A stretch of DNA of 64,000 nt from an uncultured delta proteobacterium (GCA_963771465.1 CAVYTU010000015.1:800001-864000); one strand, 5' to 3'. Positions 4,536 through 49,936 are shown, counted from the stretch's first letter. Made by a program: numbers and translations. The notes: generated from the letters alone by a model not told the origin.

Positions 4536-7500
4536 ATGTCCATCCACGTCGCGCTCCATCACGTTACCCACTACCGCTACGACCGTGTCATCAATCTTGG
4601 GCCGCAAGTTTTGCGCTTGCGGCCGGCGCCCCATTGCCGCACGCGCATCCTCAGTTATTCGCTCCAGGTTTTACCCAACGAGCACTTCATCAATTGGCAG
4701 CAAGATCCCCAGGCAAACTATTTAGCGCGCCTGGTTTTTAACCACCCGACGAACGAATTTCGCATCGGCGTCGATCTAGTCGCCGAGATGGCGGTGATCA
4801 ATCCATTCGATTTTTTTCTTGAGCCCCATGCCGAGCATTACCCCTTCGAATATGAGTCCTGGCAACGCAACGAGCTCGCGCCCTACTGCAAACGTGAACC
4901 GCTCACGCCGTTGTTTGAAAATTATTTGAATTCGGTGCCGCGGCAGAAATCCCGCAGCGTCGATTTTCTCGTTGGCTTGAACGCGCGATTGGCGCGCGAC
5001 ATCAAATATTTGATTCGTATGGAACCCGGCGTGCAAACGCCGGAGGAAACTCTCGCCAAGGGGTCGGGCTCGTGCCGCGATTCGGCGTGGCTGCTCGTGC
5101 AGCTGCTGCGCCATTTAGGATTGGCGGCGCGTTTTGTCTCCGGCTATTTGATCCAACTCACCGCCGATGTGAAATCCCTCGACGGGCCTGCCGGTCCGGC
5201 AAAAGATTTCACCGATCTGCACGCGTGGGCCGAAGTGTACTTGCCCGGCGCCGGTTGGATCGGTCTCGACGCGACGTCAGGATTGTTCGCCGGTGAAGGC
5301 CACTTGCCGCTCGCCTGCACGCCCGAGCCGGGATCGGCGTCTCCGGTAACCGGCCATGTTGACCCATGCCAAGTAGAATTTTCCCATGAAATGTCGATCA
5401 CCAGGATATGGGAAGCGCCGCGCGTCACCAAGCCCTACAGCGAGGAACAGTGGCAGGCCATCGATCGACTCGGTCAAGCCGTCGATATCGAGCTTAAGAA
5501 AAACGATGTCCGGCTAACTATGGGCGGCGAACCGACTTTTATCTCGATGGACGATTCCGAGGGCGAAGAGTGGACAACGGCAGCGCTCGGGCCAAACAAA
5601 CGACGGCTGGCAGCCGAGGTGTATCATCGCCTGCGCAGCCGCTACGGCGCTCACGGTCTGGTGCATTTTGGCCAGGGCAAATGGTATCCCGGCGAGCCGT
5701 TGCCACGCTGGTCGCTCAACTGCTTTTGGCGCGCCGACGGCGAGCCGATTTGGCGCGACCCAGCATTGATCGCCGACGAGGCTCAGCCCGGCAAGGTGAT
5801 GGCGACGACGGCTGAGGACTTTCTCCGCGCTGTCGCCCAACGGCTCGGCCTGGACCAACAACATATTTTCCCCGCCTACGAGGATCTGTTTTACTACCTA
5901 TGGCGCGAGCACCGCTTGCCGGCCAATGTCGATCCCTTCGACTCTCGGCTCGAAGATGCGCTCGAACGGCAACGGCTTATGCGTGTGCTGACTCAAGGGC
6001 TAAAACAAATCGTCGGTCACGCGCTGCCGGTGGCGCGCGACTTTGCGACCGGGCGATGGCGCAGCGGCGCTTGGTTTCTGCGCTCTGAGCATTGTTATCT
6101 GTTGCCCGGCGACTCGCCCATGGGCTACCGCCTGCCGCTCGACTCGCTGCCGTGGACCAGCGCCAACGACTACCCGGATATTTTTCCACCGGATCCAACC
6201 CAGCCGTTCCCGCCCCTTGCCACTCATGCGCAAATCCGTTTTCAGCTCGGCGCAGTGAAGTCCGCGGCTGGCGAAAGGCCTAGCGGCGGCGCGGAAAATC
6301 GCGGCCCAACCGAACGTGCGCCCGCCAAGCACGAGAGCGCGGCCTGGATTTCGCGCACGGCGCTCTGCGCCGAGCCGCGCCACGGGGTGTTGTACATTTT
6401 CATACCGCCGGTGAATTCGGTGGAAGATTATCTCGAGCTCGTTTCGGCCGTCGAAGCCAGCGCCGAAGCCTTGCGCCAGCCGATCATGTTGGAAGGCTAC
6501 GAGCCACCGCGCGACCCGCGGCTGGCCAATTTTCGCATCACCCCGGACCCGGGCGTGATCGAGGTAAATATTCATCCGTCGTCGAACTGGGATGAGCTGA
6601 GCGAGCGCACGACTTTCCTCTACGAAACGGCGCGCGCCTGTCGCTTGTCGACGGAAAAATTCATGCTCGACGGCCGCCACACCGGCACCGGCGGCGGCAA
6701 TCATTTCGCCCTCGGCGGCGCCACGCCGGCGGATTCGCCGTGGCTCCGGCGGCCGGATCTGTTGCGTAGTTTGTTGAGCTTCTGGCACAACCATCCGTCG
6801 CTGTCGTTTCTTTTCAGCGGGCTGTTTATCGGGCCGACTTCCCAGGCGCCGCGCATCGATGAAGCGCGTAGCGACTCCGTGCGCGAGCTCGAAGTGGCGT
6901 TTCGCGAGATGGAGCGGCGCGCGGACGCCAAGGATTGCCCGCCTTGGCTCATCGACCGGCTGCTGCGCAATTTGCTGATTGATGTCACCGGCAATACTCA
7001 TCGCGCCGAATTCTGCATCGACAAACTCTATTCGCCGGACAGCGCTACCGGACGTTTGGGGTTGTTAGAAATGCGCGCCTTCGAGATGCCGCCGCACGCG
7101 CGCATGAGTCTGACCCAACAGTTACTGATCCGCGCGCTGATCGCGCGTTTTTGGGAAACGCCCTACGCGCCGCCGCGTCTGGCGCGCTGGGGCACGGAAC
7201 TGCATGACCGTTTTCTGTTACCGCATTTTGTCTGGCTCGACTTCGAGGACGTGATCGCGGAATTGAATCAAGCCGGCTATAGCTTCGATCCAGCGTGGTT
7301 TGCGCCGCACTTTGAATTTCGTTTTCCTAAATACGGCGACTTCGCCGCGCGTGGCATCGAAATGGAACTGCGCGCCGCCCTTGAGCCGTGGCATGTGCTC
7401 GGTGAAGAAGGCGCCGCCGGCGGCACCGCGCGCTACGTCGACTCCTCGTTGGAAAGAATTCAAGTCAAAGTCATCGGACTACCGCCGGATCGCTACGCGA

Positions 7501-42582: not shown

Positions 42583-43773
42583 CTAGACAATCGATACGAG
42601 CCCATGATCGCGAATAAACAACGGCTCACAACCAGTCTCGTGGATAATCACGGCGCCGCCCGAAGAAAATTGTATCCGTTCATCCGCCGTCATCGCCATC
42701 GGCTTCCAGATAAACACGTTGCCTGCTTCGATGCGCAAGTCACGCGCGCCCTTACCTTCGAAACGGCGATTGAAGAGCGGCCCGTCGTCACCATAACCGC
42801 AGCCCTGCAATTGCATCACTGTCTTCATACCGCGCCGCGCGCCGAAGCCGTTGACGAAATCGGCGAGTTGGCCGAATGTCATGCCCGGCTTGAGCAACGC
42901 CAAACCCTGCCGATAAACTTCCCCATGTAATGCGATGACCGGCTGCCATTCACTGCGCACCTTACCGAGCAGGACCGGCTGGCAAACTTGCGTCAGTTGG
43001 GCTCCCATGATCGCATGAATCTCATTGGTGAGCAGCGCGTTCGCCTCAAAGCGTCGGCCCAGCGGCGGGTTAGTGTAGCGCTTCGGTTTCGCCGTGTTGA
43101 TGCCATCGATGGTCAACGTCATCGGAAAATACTCGCTGCGTTCCTCCAGCATACGCGCCAGGACGGCCGCATAGACCAGACCCGCGTCCGCACCAGGCCG
43201 CGCCAGTGTGATCAGCTCGTCGAGCCCAGCGTTGGCGACTTGAGCTGAACGTCGGACATTTTCAATCTCCTCAGCGCTCTTCACATAGCGCACTTTGCCG
43301 ATAACGTCGGTGGCGTCGGCGAAATGCGCGTTGGGCAATTTGCCCATCACATGTTCGAGCGCGGTATGATTGGCCACTCCTTCGATCGACCGACAGTGGG
43401 TCAGTAAGCCGCCTTTGAGGCCGGCAACGCCGACCCGCGCGGTATGCATACCGAGATCGAGCAGCGCCTCCGCCATCGGCTCGGCCCACTCGCGGCCGGT
43501 CTGCCAAGGGTCGGGGATCCAGGAATTGTTCGACCGCCGATCGGCGACCACGATCGGCGCGCGGCCATCGGTCGGCAGCGCTAGCGCCGAGCAGCGTAGC
43601 TGCGTCATATAGCGCGCGTCGACGCCGTCGCCCAGCGGCACGAGAATACAGTCGAAGCCGGCTTGGCTTGCGTTGGCGCGCACGGCCTCCCAACGCCGGT
43701 CGCGCTCCCCGATCGAATAGCCGTTCCAGATATGAACCGTCGCACCGGCGCCCGGCGGAGTTGTCCAAGGCAT
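42583..43773 (-). CDS. M24 (pita-bread fold) peptidase/creatinase-like protein
   Basis: YSIGERDRRW, RYVKSAEEI, LKPGMTF, QGCGYGDDGP; start at ATG 43773 after GAAGGAG. Confidence 0.8.
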   Translation of the reverse strand: MPWTTPPGAGATVHIWNGYSIGERDRRWEAVRANASQAGFDCILVPLGDGVDARYMTQLRCSALALPTDGRAPIVVADRRSNNSWIPDPWQTGREWAEPMAEALLDLGMHTARVGVAGLKGGLLTHCRSIEGVANHTALEHVMGKLPNAHFADATDVIGKVRYVKSAEEIENVRRSAQVANAGLDELITLARPGADAGLVYAAVLARMLEERSEYFPMTLTIDGINTAKPKRYTNPPLGRRFEANALLTNEIHAIMGAQLTQVCQPVLLGKVRSEWQPVIALHGEVYRQGLALLKPGMTFGQLADFVNGFGARRGMKTVMQLQGCGYGDDGPLFNRRFEGKGARDLRIEAGNVFIWKPMAMTADERIQFSSGGAVIIHETGCEPLFIRDHGLVSIV

Positions 43774-43790
43774 TACGAAATCTCCTTCGA

Positions 43791-43872
43791 TGAAAGGATA
43801 AAGGCGGAAGGATAAAGAACGGAAAACCAGCAACAGCGGTGAGCCGAGATTATCCTTTATCCTTTATCCTTT
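43791..43872. repeat. Inverted heptamer repeat element (AAGGATA / TATCCTT)
   Basis: gaaaggataaaggcggaaggataaag ... ttatcctttatcctttatcctt between the two M24 genes. Confidence 0.6.
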
Positions 43873-45099
43873 AGCTTATCGACACCATTCCCGGCGTGCG
43901 TTTGACCAGCGGCTCGCCGCCTTTTTCGCTGCACAGCACACAGCCGCCCCAACTGGTATCGAAAGTGCCGTCGGCGCTGTGGGCGATCGGCTTGACGATA
44001 AACACGTTGCCTTTTTCAATCCTAACGTCGCGATTACGCGCGCCATGATTTTGCGGTGTAAAAAGAGGCCCGTCGTCGCCGTAGCCGCGCCCATGCATCA
44101 GCAGCTGGCTCTTCATGCCGCGTTTGGCGCCGAAGTTATTGATGATATCCATGAACTCGGCAAACGGCCGGCCGGGCGTGAGATATTCCAAACCGGCGTA
44201 ATACATTTCCCGCTGCATCTCGATGGCCGGCTTCCAGGAATCAGGAATCGGCCCGAGCAAGATCGGTTGCTGTTCCTGCGCGATCAAACCGCCGAAGACA
44301 GCGTCGACTTCGTTGGCGATGCGATACATCGGCTTGCAGCGTTCGTCCTTCGGTGGGATCTTCGAAGCGCGGCAAGCGGCCGCTGCCGTTGAGTCCGCTG
44401 TAAAACGCCATCGGATAATACTCGCTGCCGAGCTCGATCATGCGCTGCATCACCCGCGTGTAGAGCAGTCCTTCGTCCATGCCCGGCCGCGCCAACTCGA
44501 TCATCTTGTCGATACCCGCCGCGGCGATCGCCGCGCCTCGTCTAAGGCAGGCGATTTGTTCTTCGCTTTTGACGTATCGCGCATAGCCGATCACCTCGGT
44601 GCCGTTTTCAAAATTGGCGTTGGGCAAACGGTGGAGCACTTCGGCGTAGGAACTGTGATTAACCACACCGTGAAACGCCCGGCCATGGGTGTAAAAACCG
44701 CGCCGGATGCCCGACACGCCGATGCGCGCGCGCTCCATGCCGGCATCGATCAACGCTTGCGCCATGCTCTCACCCCAGGAATTTTCCATTGGCCGAAACT
44801 CTGGAATCCAGCCATTGCCATCTTCTTGACCGTCTCCGAGATCGGAAATGACGATCGGCTGGCGTCCATCGGTGGGCAAGATCACCGCGGCATTATCGAG
44901 ATGCGTCAGAAAACGGCAATCGGACCTGGTGCCGCGGCGCCTGTTCTAAGGATAAATGCAAATTGCGTCCATCGACACACAACGGCACGAAGATGCACTC
45001 GAAGCCCGCCTTCGCCGCGTTGTCGCGCACGCGCTGCCAGCGCCAATCGCGCTCGGCTAATGAATAACCACTCCAATTAATATCAGCCGCTGCTTCCAT
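43871..45099 (-). CDS. M24 family paralogue; two apparent +1 frameshifts (~44936, ~44330)
   Basis: YSLAERDWRW, ILPTDGRQPIV, RYVKSEEQI, HGRGYGDDGP; colinear with the 42583-43773 paralogue once frames are joined. Confidence 0.78.
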
Positions 45100-45672: not shown

Positions 45673-47106
45673 TTAACGATCGTCCTCCATCCCCTTGACG
45701 AACTGCATCATCCGCTCAGCCGGTGCCTTGTCTTGGTATTGGCCGAACAGCCGTTGGCGCATGCGGTCGACTTCGCCGCTCTGCAAGCGCTCGTATAATT
45801 GGCTGCGCTTGCCGAACGGCGTCATCACCATATCCGCGGCGATCGCCATCAGACGTAAATGGTCCTTGGTATTCGGCGCGCCGCCGCGAAAGTAGCGCTC
45901 GACAAATGGACCAAGCTCCGTGCTCTGCAGATCCGACGCGCCGCCGCTGAGCATCAATGTGCTCGTGAGCAAAGCTTCCATCGTCTGCTCGGCGCGGTCG
46001 GAAGCTTCGATGCTGTGGACGCGGTACGCCGCACTCAACAACGGCGCCCAGGTGCCGCCGCCGGCAGCGTACCCATTAGACTCACCGACTTGAATGCACG
46101 ACCGGAGAATCTCGATATCCTGAATCAAACTCGACAAAAGAATTTGCGACGGTAGGCTGGTGTTGCGCTTGGCGTATTGGGTCAGCAACTGAGCAACGCC
46201 CAAGAACGCTTCAAGCTTCGTCACTAACCGAAGCATGGTCGAATACTGCCCCCAGGTGTGAATGTACATGATTCCTGACAGCAGCTTGGGATCTTTGTAA
46301 ACGAACAGCCGTTCCCACGGCACCACGACGTCATCGAAGATCAGCGCCGCATCGACTTCGTCGAAGCGCGTCGTCAGCGGCTGGCGCTCGGGGTCAGCGT
46401 TCTCGGCGTAAAGATCGCGACAGAGAATTTTCAGACCCTTGGTGTTCATCGGAATGGCGAACGCCATAGCATAGTCAGCTTCATCCGGCTCCCGCGGCCG
46501 ATTGGGATAAACGATCACTTCGTCGGCGATCGGCGCCAAGGTCGCCAAAGTGCGCAGGCCGCGCACCACTGGGCCTTCTTTGGTTTCGCCGACGATGTGC
46601 AGAATCAAGTCGGGATCATCCTGCTTCCCTACGGGCCTCGTGCGGTCATAATATTGGTCGGTCAGCGCGTGGGTGAGACAAAGATCGTTGCGGCTGACGT
46701 AGCGATGATAGGCGCGCGCATTGTCGGCCCACTGTTCGTTGGTCTTTTCGATCACATGGGTCCAGTCGAGCAATCCGACGATCAACTCCGCGACGAATTC
46801 CGGATAGCGCCCCATCTGGCCAAACGTTTGTTGCGCCCAGAATTCGATATTGCGCCGCTTGAGCAGCAGCTCCTGATGATTTTTTGGCGGCAGGTAACTG
46901 TACGAGATACGCTCGCCGTCGTGCTCGCAGGTCATGATGTCGCGATACTCCGGGGTATGCTGCTTGTCGTACATGTCGGCGAGCGTCTTGATCGTGCCGG
47001 TAAAACCCGTGTGTGCGGTCACGTCGACGATGCGCTTGCCCGCATGCCAAACCTCCCGGCCATCGCGCAACGCCTTGATATAATCGGCCCCTCGTCTTAC
47101 CGCCAT
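45673..47106 (-). CDS. 4-hydroxyphenylacetate 3-hydroxylase (HpaB) family oxygenase component
   Basis: YIKALRDGREVW, GQMGRYPE, LATLAPIADE, RFDEVDAALIFDDVVVPWERLF, RSQLYE. Confidence 0.88.
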   Translation of the reverse strand: MAVRRGADYIKALRDGREVWHAGKRIVDVTAHTGFTGTIKTLADMYDKQHTPEYRDIMTCEHDGERISYSYLPPKNHQELLLKRRNIEFWAQQTFGQMGRYPEFVAELIVGLLDWTHVIEKTNEQWADNARAYHRYVSRNDLCLTHALTDQYYDRTRPVGKQDDPDLILHIVGETKEGPVVRGLRTLATLAPIADEVIVYPNRPREPDEADYAMAFAIPMNTKGLKILCRDLYAENADPERQPLTTRFDEVDAALIFDDVVVPWERLFVYKDPKLLSGIMYIHTWGQYSTMLRLVTKLEAFLGVAQLLTQYAKRNTSLPSQILLSSLIQDIEILRSCIQVGESNGYAAGGGTWAPLLSAAYRVHSIEASDRAEQTMEALLTSTLMLSGGASDLQSTELGPFVERYFRGGAPNTKDHLRLMAIAADMVMTPFGKRSQLYERLQSGEVDRMRQRLFGQYQDKAPAERMMQFVKGMEDDR

Positions 47107-47422
47107 GAAAAACGACCTCCAACCTTGTTGCTGCTTGTTAGAGCACGAAGATTTATAGCGTTAATCTTGCACCGCAAGCAAGCTTACGATGGAACGGTTG
47201 CGCGCAACATTGCTGGCGCCAGTGCCGAGAGTGTCGTTGTAAGGAATGACCCGCATGCACGCGTCAAATTAAGACGCGGCAAGGGTCAATACTCGAAGGA
47301 AGTTGAAAAGATATCGCGTCGATTTATCACGAGGCGACGCTCAGCTTGGAACGATTTCCCTTAGTTTGATTTGCATTCTTTGCGGTCAATTCTCCAATCC
47401 TCAGTTTATAACTGTCTCGATC

Positions 47423-47857
47423 TTAATTCTTCTTCCCCGGCTCGGCCTGATAGCCTTGGTCCTTCCATTTGCTCACCGGGCAAAATGTCGTGCTCTGAAA
47501 ACCCATCTCTTCTGCTAGCTTCGCAGCCTGCGAGCTTTGCGCTCCGGTGCCTCAGGTGAAAACGATATAGGTTTCCTTGGACATTTTCTTGAGATGGCCT
47601 TCAAGTTCTGCCAACGGAATATTGATCGCGCCGGGAATAGTTTCTTTTTCGAAACTGGCCGCAGCGCGCACGTCGATGATCAACATTTTGCCGGCATCGA
47701 GTCGTTTCTTTAATTCCTCGGCCGGTGTTTGCTTGGCGCCAACGGCCCATTTCGTCTGGGGATCGACCGGGTAGCGCGGTTGCGCCTGGGCGGCGAATGA
47801 GGGTTGAGCCCACAATATTAGTGCGGTCAGACTCGCGCCTGCGACAAATGATCTCAC
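47423..47857 (-). CDS. Exported rhodanese-domain protein with in-frame TGA (47552-47554) at the active-site Cys: probable selenoprotein
   Basis: AAAGGAG RBS + GTG; signal peptide; LIIDVR, IPGAINIPL; ...KETYIVFT-TGA-GTGAQSSQAAKLAEEMGF...WKDQGY...KKN-TAA completes the rhodanese fold. Confidence 0.85.
47517..47536 (-). promoter_or_regulatory. Putative bacterial SECIS element (rhodanese)
   Basis: mRNA AGC-UCGCA-GGC-UGCGA-(A)-GCU hairpin; loop G 24 nt after UGA. Confidence 0.7.
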
Positions 47858-47892
47858 AAATACTCCTTTCTCAATTTGACCAAGAAGCTTAC

Positions 47893-48414
47893 TCAATCCC
47901 GATCCGACATTTCAAACGCCAGCGTCGCGTAACGCATAAAAACGCCGCCGCGCGGTTCCGCCAGCGGGCCGTTAGCCACTAAGCAAGCAATCACATGCTT
48001 GGCGCCGGGCTGCGCTTTGGTGCTCACCTCTACTCTCTGTTGTGCGTTGATGCCGACGATCGTCCCTGCCGGCCGTTCGAGCTGGCCATCGACCCAAATC
48101 TCACCGTAGTTATCAACGTTGGTCTCGAACCATACGCGGTAATCGCGCAACGCCAGGCCATTCACCTGCTCGGGCAACTCGACGGTAATCCGATACCAAG
48201 CAAAGGTAAAACCCTTGGAAATACTTCTGCGAATATCGGCACACAGGTTCCATCCCGAATCATCGAAGTCAGCCAAACGGGGCGGCGCTGCCAATAGCTG
48301 TGCGGTGAGACCTTCGTTCGGCTGGCCGGGCACCAATCCGGGACCGATGCGCCACTGTCCTTTCACCTTTCGACAATCCTCCGCGCTATTCAAATCCAAC
48401 GCGACCCTCGGCAT
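47893..48414 (-). CDS. Hypothetical protein with galactose-binding/GH2 sugar-binding-like jelly-roll features
   Basis: FDDSGW, FAWYRITVELP, VDNYGEIWVDG, HVIACLVAN; AAGGAGG RBS. Confidence 0.7.
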   Translation of the reverse strand: MPRVALDLNSAEDCRKVKGQWRIGPGLVPGQPNEGLTAQLLAAPPRLADFDDSGWNLCADIRRSISKGFTFAWYRITVELPEQVNGLALRDYRVWFETNVDNYGEIWVDGQLERPAGTIVGINAQQRVEVSTKAQPGAKHVIACLVANGPLAEPRGGVFMRYATLAFEMSDRD

Positions 48415-48460
48415 GGATGCCTCCTTAGACCCAATTTTTGCGGCAATGCGAAAATTTTTT

Positions 48461-48542
48461 TCACCACGAAGTTCACGAAGGACACGAAGGCTTCGGATGA
48501 CCAATACTCCGAACTTCGTGCTCTTCGTGTGCTTCGTGGTGA
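48461..48542. repeat. Palindromic element of three CACGAAG units at 9-nt period
   Basis: TCAC-CACGAAG-tt-CACGAAG-ga-CACGAAG-gc-TTCGGA ... TCCGAA-CTTCGTG-ct-CTTCGTG-tg-CTTCGTG-GTGA. Confidence 0.85.
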
Positions 48543-48583
48543 TTACGATCTTTGCCTTTTTGCTTGCTGCTATGCCGCGCTCG

Positions 48584-49936
48584 TTAACCTCGAAGAATCT
48601 CCGTCAGCGACCTTACGTTCTCTACTTTTTCCAAGCCTTCGATCTGCGCCAACGCGCGCTCAGCAGCGTCAGCGCTCAAAGTTTCGCGCGCGCACTGGGT
48701 AAACTTACCTCTCAGCTCGTCTTCCGACATGGGAAACTCCGAGCTGCCCCTGGAATGCTGCGCTTCGCGAGTAAGCACCTTGCCGTCCTTCAAGCGCACC
48801 GTGACGCGGCACGGGCGTCCGCCGGGGTCGGTTTTTCTCAGATTATTATCGAGATTCATTTGCACTCTTTCGGCCAACTTCAAAACATTCCGGTCACGCA
48901 CGGCGGCGTCGGTGAATGCATGCAACGACACCTCGCCGTCGATTAGCGCCCGCGCCACCAAGTAGGGCATGCAGAATTTCCCCTGGATGCTTGTTTGCGG
49001 CACTTTGAAAACGATTCGCTCGAAGGTGTGCTTGACGACATCGACGTCGACGCGCTCGACCATCTCCGGCGTCAAGCCGTTTTTAGCTCTGAATTCCAAG
49101 ATGGAATCGATCACCTGGTGGGTAAGTCCACCGCAAGGATAAGGCTTGATACGGATGCCGTCGCTGAGCAAGGCATACGATTGGCCCAACTCTTCGATCG
49201 GCTTCTCGTCGATGGGCGTACCTTGATGCAAAACTTTGTAAAAGCCAAAGCCTGATTCGATCGCTTTGCCGTTGGCGGTGTATCCGCCGGCCGCGAGCTT
49301 GGCGGCGAGCACGCCGTTGCGCGCGCCGAGACCGGCATGCAACGGTTTGGTCATGGTGCCAAAGTTTGCGACGATGCCGCCGGCCATCGATGCCGACATG
49401 CCGAGCGCCATCTCAACCTGCGATGCGTTGAGACCGAGCAATTTCGCGCATGCGGCCGCGGCGCCAAAAACACCTACCGTGCTCGGCGCGTGCCAACCGT
49501 CATGTTCGCTGTCGCGCAGGGAATGCACGATCTTAGCCGTAACCTCGTAACCGGCGGCGTAGGCTTCGATAATCTGCCGGCCGCTGGCGCCGAGCGCTTC
49601 ACCCAGAGCAAAAGTCGCCGGAATGATCGGCGAGGTCGGCTGGCCCATCAATGTGAAGCTGTGATCGAAATCCATCGCGTGGGCCGCCGTGCCATTGGCC
49701 AGCGCGGCGTTGAGCGCGGAAGATTTGAATCCTTGACCGATGACCGTGGTTTCTTCCTTAGCCTGTTCCAGGCGGGCAATCTCGGCGCAAATCTTTGCGT
49801 CCTCTTCTTTGCTGCCGGCAAGGGCCACGCCGAGGCAATCGCGCACCGCTACTTTGGCCGTCTCAATTGCCTTTGGCGGTAGGTTTTCATACTTCGCACT
49901 AACAACGAATTGAGCGATCTTTGCAGTTACGTCCAT
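48584..49936 (-). CDS. MmgE/PrpD family protein
   Basis: DCLGVALAGS, NGTAAHAMDFDH, GWHAPST, GTMTKPLHAG, KPYPCG, GKFCMPY. Confidence 0.9.
   Translation of the reverse strand: MDVTAKIAQFVVSAKYENLPPKAIETAKVAVRDCLGVALAGSKEEDAKICAEIARLEQAKEETTVIGQGFKSSALNAALANGTAAHAMDFDHSFTLMGQPTSPIIPATFALGEALGASGRQIIEAYAAGYEVTAKIVHSLRDSEHDGWHAPSTVGVFGAAAACAKLLGLNASQVEMALGMSASMAGGIVANFGTMTKPLHAGLGARNGVLAAKLAAGGYTANGKAIESGFGFYKVLHQGTPIDEKPIEELGQSYALLSDGIRIKPYPCGGLTHQVIDSILEFRAKNGLTPEMVERVDVDVVKHTFERIVFKVPQTSIQGKFCMPYLVARALIDGEVSLHAFTDAAVRDRNVLKLAERVQMNLDNNLRKTDPGGRPCRVTVRLKDGKVLTREAQHSRGSSEFPMSEDELRGKFTQCARETLSADAAERALAQIEGLEKVENVRSLTEILRG

Follow-up and report, generated by a model that had tools for sequence, protein, structure and literature searches.

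A UGA codon at the catalytic position of a predicted exported rhodanese from an uncultured delta proteobacterium

The window analysed here is the whole stretch of 64,000 nucleotides (GCA_963771465.1 CAVYTU010000015.1:800001-864000) from an uncultured delta proteobacterium. On its minus strand, a rhodanese-like reading frame halts at IVFT*. The question raised by this locus is whether the protein ends there, or whether the UGA is read as selenocysteine (Sec) at the active site of a longer, exported enzyme, as the initial annotation had proposed. A genuine selenoprotein, in this case a real exported Sec-rhodanese, was found to be very probable. The strong part of the evidence comprises the reading frame, the Sec codon, the conservation of the SECIS element, the Sec decoding machinery, the fold and a conserved hydrophobic leader. 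The features of the gene are listed below.

47423-47857, minus strand: Sec-rhodanese precursor gene, 144 codons (translation with TGA as U, Pfam Rhodanese, full-length alignment with Cys homologues, AF2 model, Foldseek)
47863-47867, minus strand: Shine-Dalgarno sequence AGGAG, 5 nt before the GTG start (sequence read directly)
47855-47857, minus strand: GTG start codon
47792-47857, minus strand: predicted Sec-pathway signal peptide, residues 1-22, MRS / FVAGASLTALILWA / QPSFA (n/h/c layout by eye, hydropathy)
47492-47722, minus strand: rhodanese homology domain, residues 46-122 (PF00581; Pfam and PDB profile matches)
47552-47554, minus strand: UGA for Sec102, first residue of the active-site loop U-G-T-G-A-Q-S (Cys-homologue alignment, codon counts, model)
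47517-47536, minus strand: SECIS hairpin AGCUCGCA-GGC-UGCG(A)AGCU, 20 nt (RNAalifold, pairing, synonymous entropy)
47480-47482, minus strand: codon of Cys126 (FCP motif), candidate partner of Sec102 (invariance, model)
47423-47425, minus strand: TAA stop codon

Reading frame and the codon at the catalytic position

Translated from the GTG at 47857, the frame reads MRSF...YIVFT, meets the TGA, and continues through GTGAQSSQAAKLAEEMGFQSTTFCPVSKWKDQGYQAEPGKKN to the TAA. With TGA as U, the 144-aa minus-strand product is MRSFVAGASLTALILWAQPSFAAQAQ...YIVFT-U-GTGAQSSQAAKLAEEMGFQSTTFCPVSKWKDQGYQAEPGKKN. The 42-residue read-through tail reported earlier was recovered in full, and the second Cys that had been placed in a TFCP motif lies within it as Cys126. 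The automatic listing began the ORF at an upstream TTG (47896), but the ATG starts of the orthologues align with the GTG instead. A promoter and terminator scan of 47100-48700 found neither.

In one rival reading of the locus, the UGA marks a genuine stop, or is a defect, and leaves a 101-aa fragment that lacks the catalytic loop, with the downstream frame as a decaying remnant or an assembly error. Gene calls agree with it on their face. The public call for the window's own gene is 101 aa, and among the best 120 of 357 matches from a database search, 105 stop at the UGA position, with lengths mostly of 100-102 aa, and the remaining 15 are full length. Some of the calls cut at the UGA among the matches listed carry the name 'SseA'. 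To this may be added the irregular copies described at the end of this section, namely CGA in two loci, a frameshift after the TGA in a third and an added TAA in a fourth.

Homologues at the UGA column argue otherwise. The in-frame TGA at 47552-47554 was found where homologues carry the catalytic Cys, as the halt at IVFT* had suggested. Thirteen full-length homologues were used in the alignment at this column. Cys-containing homologues aligning at the UGA, which the initial annotation had named as a check, were found in 11 of them, in the context F-T-C-G-T-G-R-x-S-S-Q-A-A-K-L-A-E. The other two, both JGI calls, have W, which is taken to be TGA translated as Trp.

The codon was then counted in 100 loci, 20 from species-representative genomes and 80 from metagenomes. 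The metagenome query was an alignment of Cys forms, chosen to bring such forms to the top of the ranking. TGA was present in 91 of the 100, TGC in 7 (L034, L101-L105 and L120) and CGA in 2 (L028 and L125); these counts include 7 loci read by eye beyond the motif match. The TGA-bearing loci span MAGs labelled as deltaproteobacteria, Thermodesulfobacteriota, Binatia and Acidobacteriota lineages. The same TGA in 91 loci, with Cys at that position in 7, is far beyond chance.

Conservation of the tail was measured as median dN/dS against the window. It was 0.083 for the 39 codons downstream of the TGA (n = 82 distinct sequences) and 0.062 for the 30 codons upstream (n = 81 sequences). The codon-entropy and dN/dS sets exclude L036 because of its frameshift and L147 because of its short length. 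In the 83 distinct TGA forms, the downstream F, C, P and W residues are invariant in the protein and their codons vary synonymously. Low dN/dS together with synonymous variation indicates a tail that is translated and held by purifying selection. The codon at 47552-47554 is bridged, with no other letter there, by contigs of one DNA run (X1, record 3, no differences) and of two RNA libraries (X15, record 10; X17, record 13), which shows that the TGA did not arise by an assembly slip; for transcription, the RNA-library contigs are no proof. Thus, neither a TGC or TGT in the reads nor an unconserved stretch of 42 downstream codons, the two sequence outcomes named beforehand as fatal to the proposal, was encountered: TGA stands in the 91 loci and in independent DNA and RNA-library contigs, and the downstream dN/dS is low.

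Several loci depart from the common form. In L028 (2346-2774) and L125, CGA (Arg) replaces the TGA, and the gene is intact in all other respects, SECIS hairpin included. These two loci are otherwise near-identical to the TGA-bearing L024 and L123, and the same CGA form was seen in G031 of the related-genome survey. CGA is a natural one-step Sec-to-Arg allele, presumably an inactive one. L036 (4001-4430) keeps the TGA and the hairpin core and has a frameshift just past the Sec codon, and L026 (1706-2137) has an additional in-frame TAA five codons upstream of the TGA. Either decay of these two copies or errors in their assembly would explain the irregularities.

The SECIS hairpin and the selenocysteine machinery

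The hairpin begins 15 nt after the UGA and has 8 bp. Its apical loop GGC occupies 47526-47528, which are nt 27-29 when the U of the UGA is counted as 1. We take it to resemble the apical stem-loop of E. coli fdhF. The whole element lies within the coding sequence for S-S-Q-A-A-K-L. Codons +6 to +11 (AGC UCG CAG GCU GCG AAG) showed synonymous entropies of 0.26, 0, 0, 0, 0 and 0.10 bits across the 83 distinct TGA forms; other four-fold degenerate codons of the same gene, among them G33, T22 and A13, showed 1.0-1.9 bits.

The RNAalifold consensus of 69 distinct sequences gave 8 pairs at -8.29 kcal/mol and is the same hairpin. Its cells were paired in 99.1% of cases, falling to 14-50% when the 3' partner was slid. 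Only one compensatory change was found, C-G to U-A in L119. Covariation was accordingly minimal, at 1 compensatory cell of 552, a level reached by 23 of 500 shuffles; an element that varies so little can show almost none. In the Cys loci, the hairpin fold was lost in 6 of 7, with L105 retaining it; the same codons have drifted to AGU UCA CAG GCC GCA AAA in the Cys locus L034. In L037 and L039, the lower stem pairs only in a shifted register.

Single-sequence folding gave a different result. The minimum free energy fold of the 81 nt after the UGA was not the hairpin and had an energy no better than shuffles (z = 0.55), and the isolated hairpin (32 nt, -10.3 kcal/mol) was likewise no better than shuffles (z = -0.49). 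Therefore, thermodynamics alone cannot support a SECIS. An Rfam search of 47380-47900 returned just two chance-level matches (E above 5). The SECIS-like hairpin that had been described after the UGA is nonetheless real, supported by comparative data and not by free energy. A small apical loop containing G is a feature named for bacterial SECIS elements in the available part of PMC1088965, and the hairpin here fits that description.

The hairpin core, CGCAGGCTGCG, occurs in 8 copies in the genome, and the window copy is the only one preceded by an in-frame TGA within a conserved frame. The idea of the core as a shared SECIS module was rejected, since the other genomic copies lack such a TGA.

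The genome (6.9 Mb, 19 contigs, 55.7% G+C) was searched for the decoding machinery. Outside the window, a single cluster at C14:197319-201637 holds selA, selB and selD in succession (L001, L003 and L005), with profile scores of 614.1, 358.6 and 376.3 bits, respectively, all exceeding the curated cut-offs. The tRNA-Sec gene (selC) is at C13:400992-401082, with 76.7 bits, above its curated cut-off, and ARAGORN reported it as tRNA-SeC(tca) with anticodon UCA. All four genes, whose absence would have spoken against Sec insertion, are therefore present. The selD gene contains its own in-frame TGA in the context G-U-A-A-K. Its SECIS-like element is a different 8-bp hairpin with a GUU loop, UCGCGCAA-GUU-UUGCGCGA.

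These results bear on two readings that dispense with Sec. A true stop or defect is contradicted by the downstream dN/dS of the tail with its abundant synonymous change, by a TGA kept across several lineages, by the frozen SECIS, by the Sec machinery, and by the same letters in contigs from independent runs; we regard it as very improbable. In the second reading, a variant code or near-cognate suppression would insert Trp, Cys or Arg at the UGA. The W in the two JGI calls and the existence of a CGA (Arg) allele could be taken that way, but the homologues have Cys and not Trp in the UGA column, and a dedicated conserved hairpin accompanies a full selABCD set. Furthermore, TGA is the commonest stop in this genome, terminating 669 of the 1688 open frames of at least 400 codons, and is thus an ordinary stop there. 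Readthrough of this kind is scarcely credible. Decoding as Sec remains the preferred reading, in which SelB and tRNA-Sec(UCA) would decode the UGA at 47552-47554 as Sec102 under the direction of the hairpin 15 nt downstream.

Fold, export and proposed chemistry

The read-through protein matched Pfam Rhodanese (PF00581) with 66.1 bits (cut-off 22.2; E 4.1e-18) over profile positions 2-88 of 102. Without the tail, the first 101 aa scored 44.3 bits and covered 2-66 of 102, so the tail completes the domain. The AF2 model, built on a 24-row alignment (pLDDT 84.7), has a strand at 97-101, Sec102, a helix at 106-117, a strand at 121-125 and Cys126. It agrees with an alpha/beta fold whose nucleophile sits where a central strand ends and opens the loop ahead of a helix. 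Foldseek with this model matched the single-domain rhodaneses 3nhv, 3tp9, 3gk5, 6bev (TSTD1) and YgaP (E 2.5e-8 to 1.7e-5), and matches of the PDB profile search included 1yt8, 6mxv, 6bev (TSTD1) and 2jtq (PspE). The rise in Pfam score and coverage, the model and the Foldseek matches agree with the earlier statement that read-through completes the rhodanese fold. The loop in the window lacks the Arg that is commonest among orthologues at +4, having A106/Q107 in its place, which is a little unusual for an anion-binding loop.

Four Cys-type rhodanese paralogues lie within about 14 kb elsewhere in the same genome (C19:118254-132599; L182-L185, outside the window), with 30-36% identity to the query.

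The leader was inspected by eye and by hydropathy. A basic n-region is followed by a hydrophobic core of 14 residues and then by S-F-A, which puts small residues at -3 and -1, and the Kyte-Doolittle 10-residue maximum of the N-terminus is 1.98. A hydrophobic N-terminus (>1.6) was present in 92 of the 93 orthologues scored. Neither a twin-arginine (RR) motif nor a lipobox Cys was seen in the window leader. The n/h/c layout, the hydropathy and the orthologues are consistent with the signal peptide described earlier; from these sequences, the protein is probably exported by the Sec pathway, and cleavage would fall after SFA.

Cys orthologues (Vicinamibacteria-type; L101, L105, P0023, P0024 and others) often have R-R before the hydrophobic core, e.g. 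Y-R-R-T-I-L. The Sec forms, unlike them, have no such R-R. The RR-bearing Cys forms may be exported via Tat and not Sec.

In the mechanism that we propose, export and signal-peptide cleavage would yield a mature protein of about 122 aa. The Sec102 selenolate, heading the six-residue loop U-G-T-G-x-x-S, would take a sulfane sulfur from thiosulfate or polysulfide and hand it to a thiol, cyanide or sulfite outside the cytoplasm. PspE and Sud are said to carry out such sulfur transfer with Cys. The lower pKa of selenium and its better properties as a leaving group would be of benefit in the periplasm. Cys126, placed where the neighbouring strand ends, would be available for a protective or resolving selenenylsulfide. 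Within this explanation, sulfurtransferase chemistry is argued by analogy, and we give it about an even chance.

The main rival accepts a real exported Sec-rhodanese and regards it as mainly a selenol/thiol redox protein, working by a Sec102-Cys126 selenenylsulfide cycle and not as a simple ping-pong sulfurtransferase. Its tasks might be persulfide or polysulfide reduction, or exchange with periplasmic disulfides. All 83 distinct TGA forms keep Cys126, encoded by TGC or TGT in a 38/45 split, and the Cys forms keep it too. The model places Sec102 and Cys126 directly after strands 97-101 and 121-125. We take these strands to be adjacent and parallel, as presumably in the rhodanese fold, and the two side chains should then be close. 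In addition, most predicted prokaryotic selenoproteins are thiol-oxidoreductase-like, according to the available part of PMC9312934. However, the U-x23-C spacing matches neither the UxxC nor the CxxU redox motif, and the nearest curated families are sulfurtransferases. The six-residue loop, as we understand it, is also of the sulfurtransferase type. We consider a mainly redox role possible and on balance unlikely.

Cys126 may form a selenenylsulfide with Sec102, and whether that bond is protective or catalytic distinguishes sulfur transfer from the redox cycle. A bolder proposal is that the gene founds a Sec-dominant exported clade for extracytoplasmic sulfane-sulfur chemistry in soil bacteria, with a Sec102-Cys126 selenenylsulfide switch; we hold this to be doubtful. 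If true, such a switch would enable a rhodanese to function in an oxidising, reductant-poor periplasm and to withstand over-oxidation there, by a mechanism undescribed for PspE-type rhodaneses or for the catalogued Sec-rhodanese forms.

Gene neighbourhood, distribution and known systems

The gene order in the window is TctC, MmgE/PrpD, a 203-aa protein and the Sec-rhodanese. The initial annotation had read this run (TctC / MmgE-PrpD / jelly-roll) as a functional tie to catabolism. Among the 20 genome loci, the TctC/PrpD order was kept in six (L021, L022, L023, L025, L026 and L027), all from close relatives whose rhodaneses are 73-79% identical. The other 14 lacked the TctC, MmgE/PrpD and 203-aa neighbours. 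Flanking ORFs were scanned in 10 of these 14 and were unrelated: Zn-ADH with UbiD, NMT1-like binding proteins, cupin, FAD monooxygenase, glyoxalase, TIR and WD40. Across the 20 loci and the 10 scanned flanks, no conserved partner pointing to a substrate was found beyond the close relatives. The gene orders lend no support to the proposed tie to this gene run or to organic-acid catabolism.

The protein upstream of the rhodanese (47893-48504, minus strand; about 173-203 aa) lies 35 nt away, has no Pfam match, and is conserved beside the rhodanese only among the six close relatives. A feature search of the ESM Atlas placed it with clusters auto-named 'glycosyl hydrolase family 2 sugar-binding domain' (score 0.99), in keeping with the earlier 'jelly-roll' label, but this is only a lead. 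Elsewhere in the window, two adjacent minus-strand ORFs, 42583-43833 (416 aa) and 43871-44329 (152 aa), both match Peptidase_M24. The shorter one, which matches just the C-terminal half of the profile, could be either a fragment or the result of duplication.

Among 61 related genomes, the gene was present in 14, 13 of which carry one TGA. It was found in 12 of 30 genomes of the same genus (besides G000), in 1 of 6 from other genera of the family and in 0 of 24 from the other families searched. The gene is also common in soil, rhizosphere and sediment metagenomes. Patchy presence and unshared neighbours indicate that it behaves as a free-standing accessory gene.

This distribution also bears on a third function, in which the protein would be a periplasmic carrier of selenite-derived selenium at its Sec/Cys site, serving uptake or detoxification. 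Going by titles of references cited in PMC5877670 and PMC13510729, rhodanese can carry selenium as perselenide, and the extracytoplasmic rhodanese-like lipoprotein ExtH of Geobacter is linked to selenite uptake; the organism here also invests in Sec machinery. Against this, the loci examined showed no selenium-related neighbour genes, the gene is patchy even within the genus (12 of 30 genomes), and Se and S substrates are indistinguishable from sequence. Selenium handling is improbable as the main role. ExtH itself was considered as a Sec-rhodanese and dropped, because the available parts of both sources call it just a rhodanese-like (lipo)protein; a Sec-rhodanese of the present kind is not described there.

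Sulfur transfer outside the cytoplasm, the preferred reading, has Cys-based precedents. Sud of Wolinella succinogenes is a periplasmic polysulfide-sulfur transferase of the exported rhodanese type that uses Cys and serves polysulfide reductase. No polysulfide reductase genes were seen beside the gene in the window and the flanks scanned. PspE, the periplasmic thiosulfate sulfurtransferase of E. coli (NF007627 / TIGR02981; 2jtq), likewise has a small single rhodanese domain and a signal peptide, which is predicted here. It was the best NCBIfam match (E 1.5e-11), and 2jtq was matched by profile (E 3.3e-10). However, the scores of 44.4 against a cut-off of 102 bits (NF007627) and of 40 against 126.3 bits (TIGR02981) are far below the PspE cut-offs, so the product is not a PspE equivalog. 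It also differs from PspE in having Sec for Cys and the additional invariant Cys126, and in lying outside any psp operon. By analogy, the two likely share a working mode, with one nucleophile heading a six-residue loop outside the cytoplasm.

Two curated families are also rhodanese-domain selenoproteins. The scores were 34.4 against 115 bits for Rhodanese_LYCAU (NF041203, 'form 3', CxU) and 17 against 805 bits for TsoB (NF045694, 'form 5', UxxxxU), both below the cut-off. The motif here, T-U-G-T-G, differs from both in the position of Sec.

About 1.1 kb downstream of the orthologue in L030, a gene at 5543-6730 (plus strand) encodes a VTT/DedA membrane domain fused to a rhodanese domain. It has an in-frame TGA in the context L-Y-C-S-U-P-N-E, a CxU like that of the 'LYCAU' form 3, and its frame stays open and rhodanese-like for about 50 codons past the TGA. 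This is a candidate second selenoprotein, and two kinds of Sec-rhodanese would thus coexist as separate genes.

Since the catalytic residue is encoded by UGA, gene callers cut the protein to 101 residues, and hundreds of calls of about 101 aa hide a complete conserved selenoenzyme, which is a systematic error. Furthermore, one catalytic position occurs naturally with Sec, Cys or Arg, and the minimal SECIS is unusually invariant, which makes the gene convenient for studying what a sulfurtransferase gains from selenium outside the cytoplasm.

Sec-rhodaneses were known beforehand, as the initial annotation had stated for metagenome surveys, and they are listed in both surveys and reviews. They have been catalogued since 2004-2005, and the gene here opens no fresh category. 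Three sequences were reported from the Sargasso Sea (PMC1088965) and, in the available part of the study, eight genes from Olavius symbionts (PMC1976440). Entries including 'COG0607 form 1' appear in the available part of PMC9312934. A 2026 review (PMC13188914) gives five forms in the part available, of which form 2 is PF00581 with UxxG. The U-G-T-G here fits that form as compared by description and not by sequence. The available part of this review makes no mention of signal peptide, periplasm, secreted, exported or extracytoplasmic. The catalogued proteins and the present one are alike in having Sec for the catalytic Cys and in being single-domain and COG0607/PspE-like, and the former were predicted by similar logic, from a TGA/Cys pair and a bacterial SECIS. 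They differ in the prevalence of Sec. In the available part of the GOS study (PMC2398784), 'Sulfurtransferase COG0607' had 6 Sec against 4,277 Cys homologues, whereas Sec is dominant here, at 91 of 100 loci. The gene belongs to what is possibly a distinct, exported and Sec-dominant subfamily of the Sec-rhodaneses.
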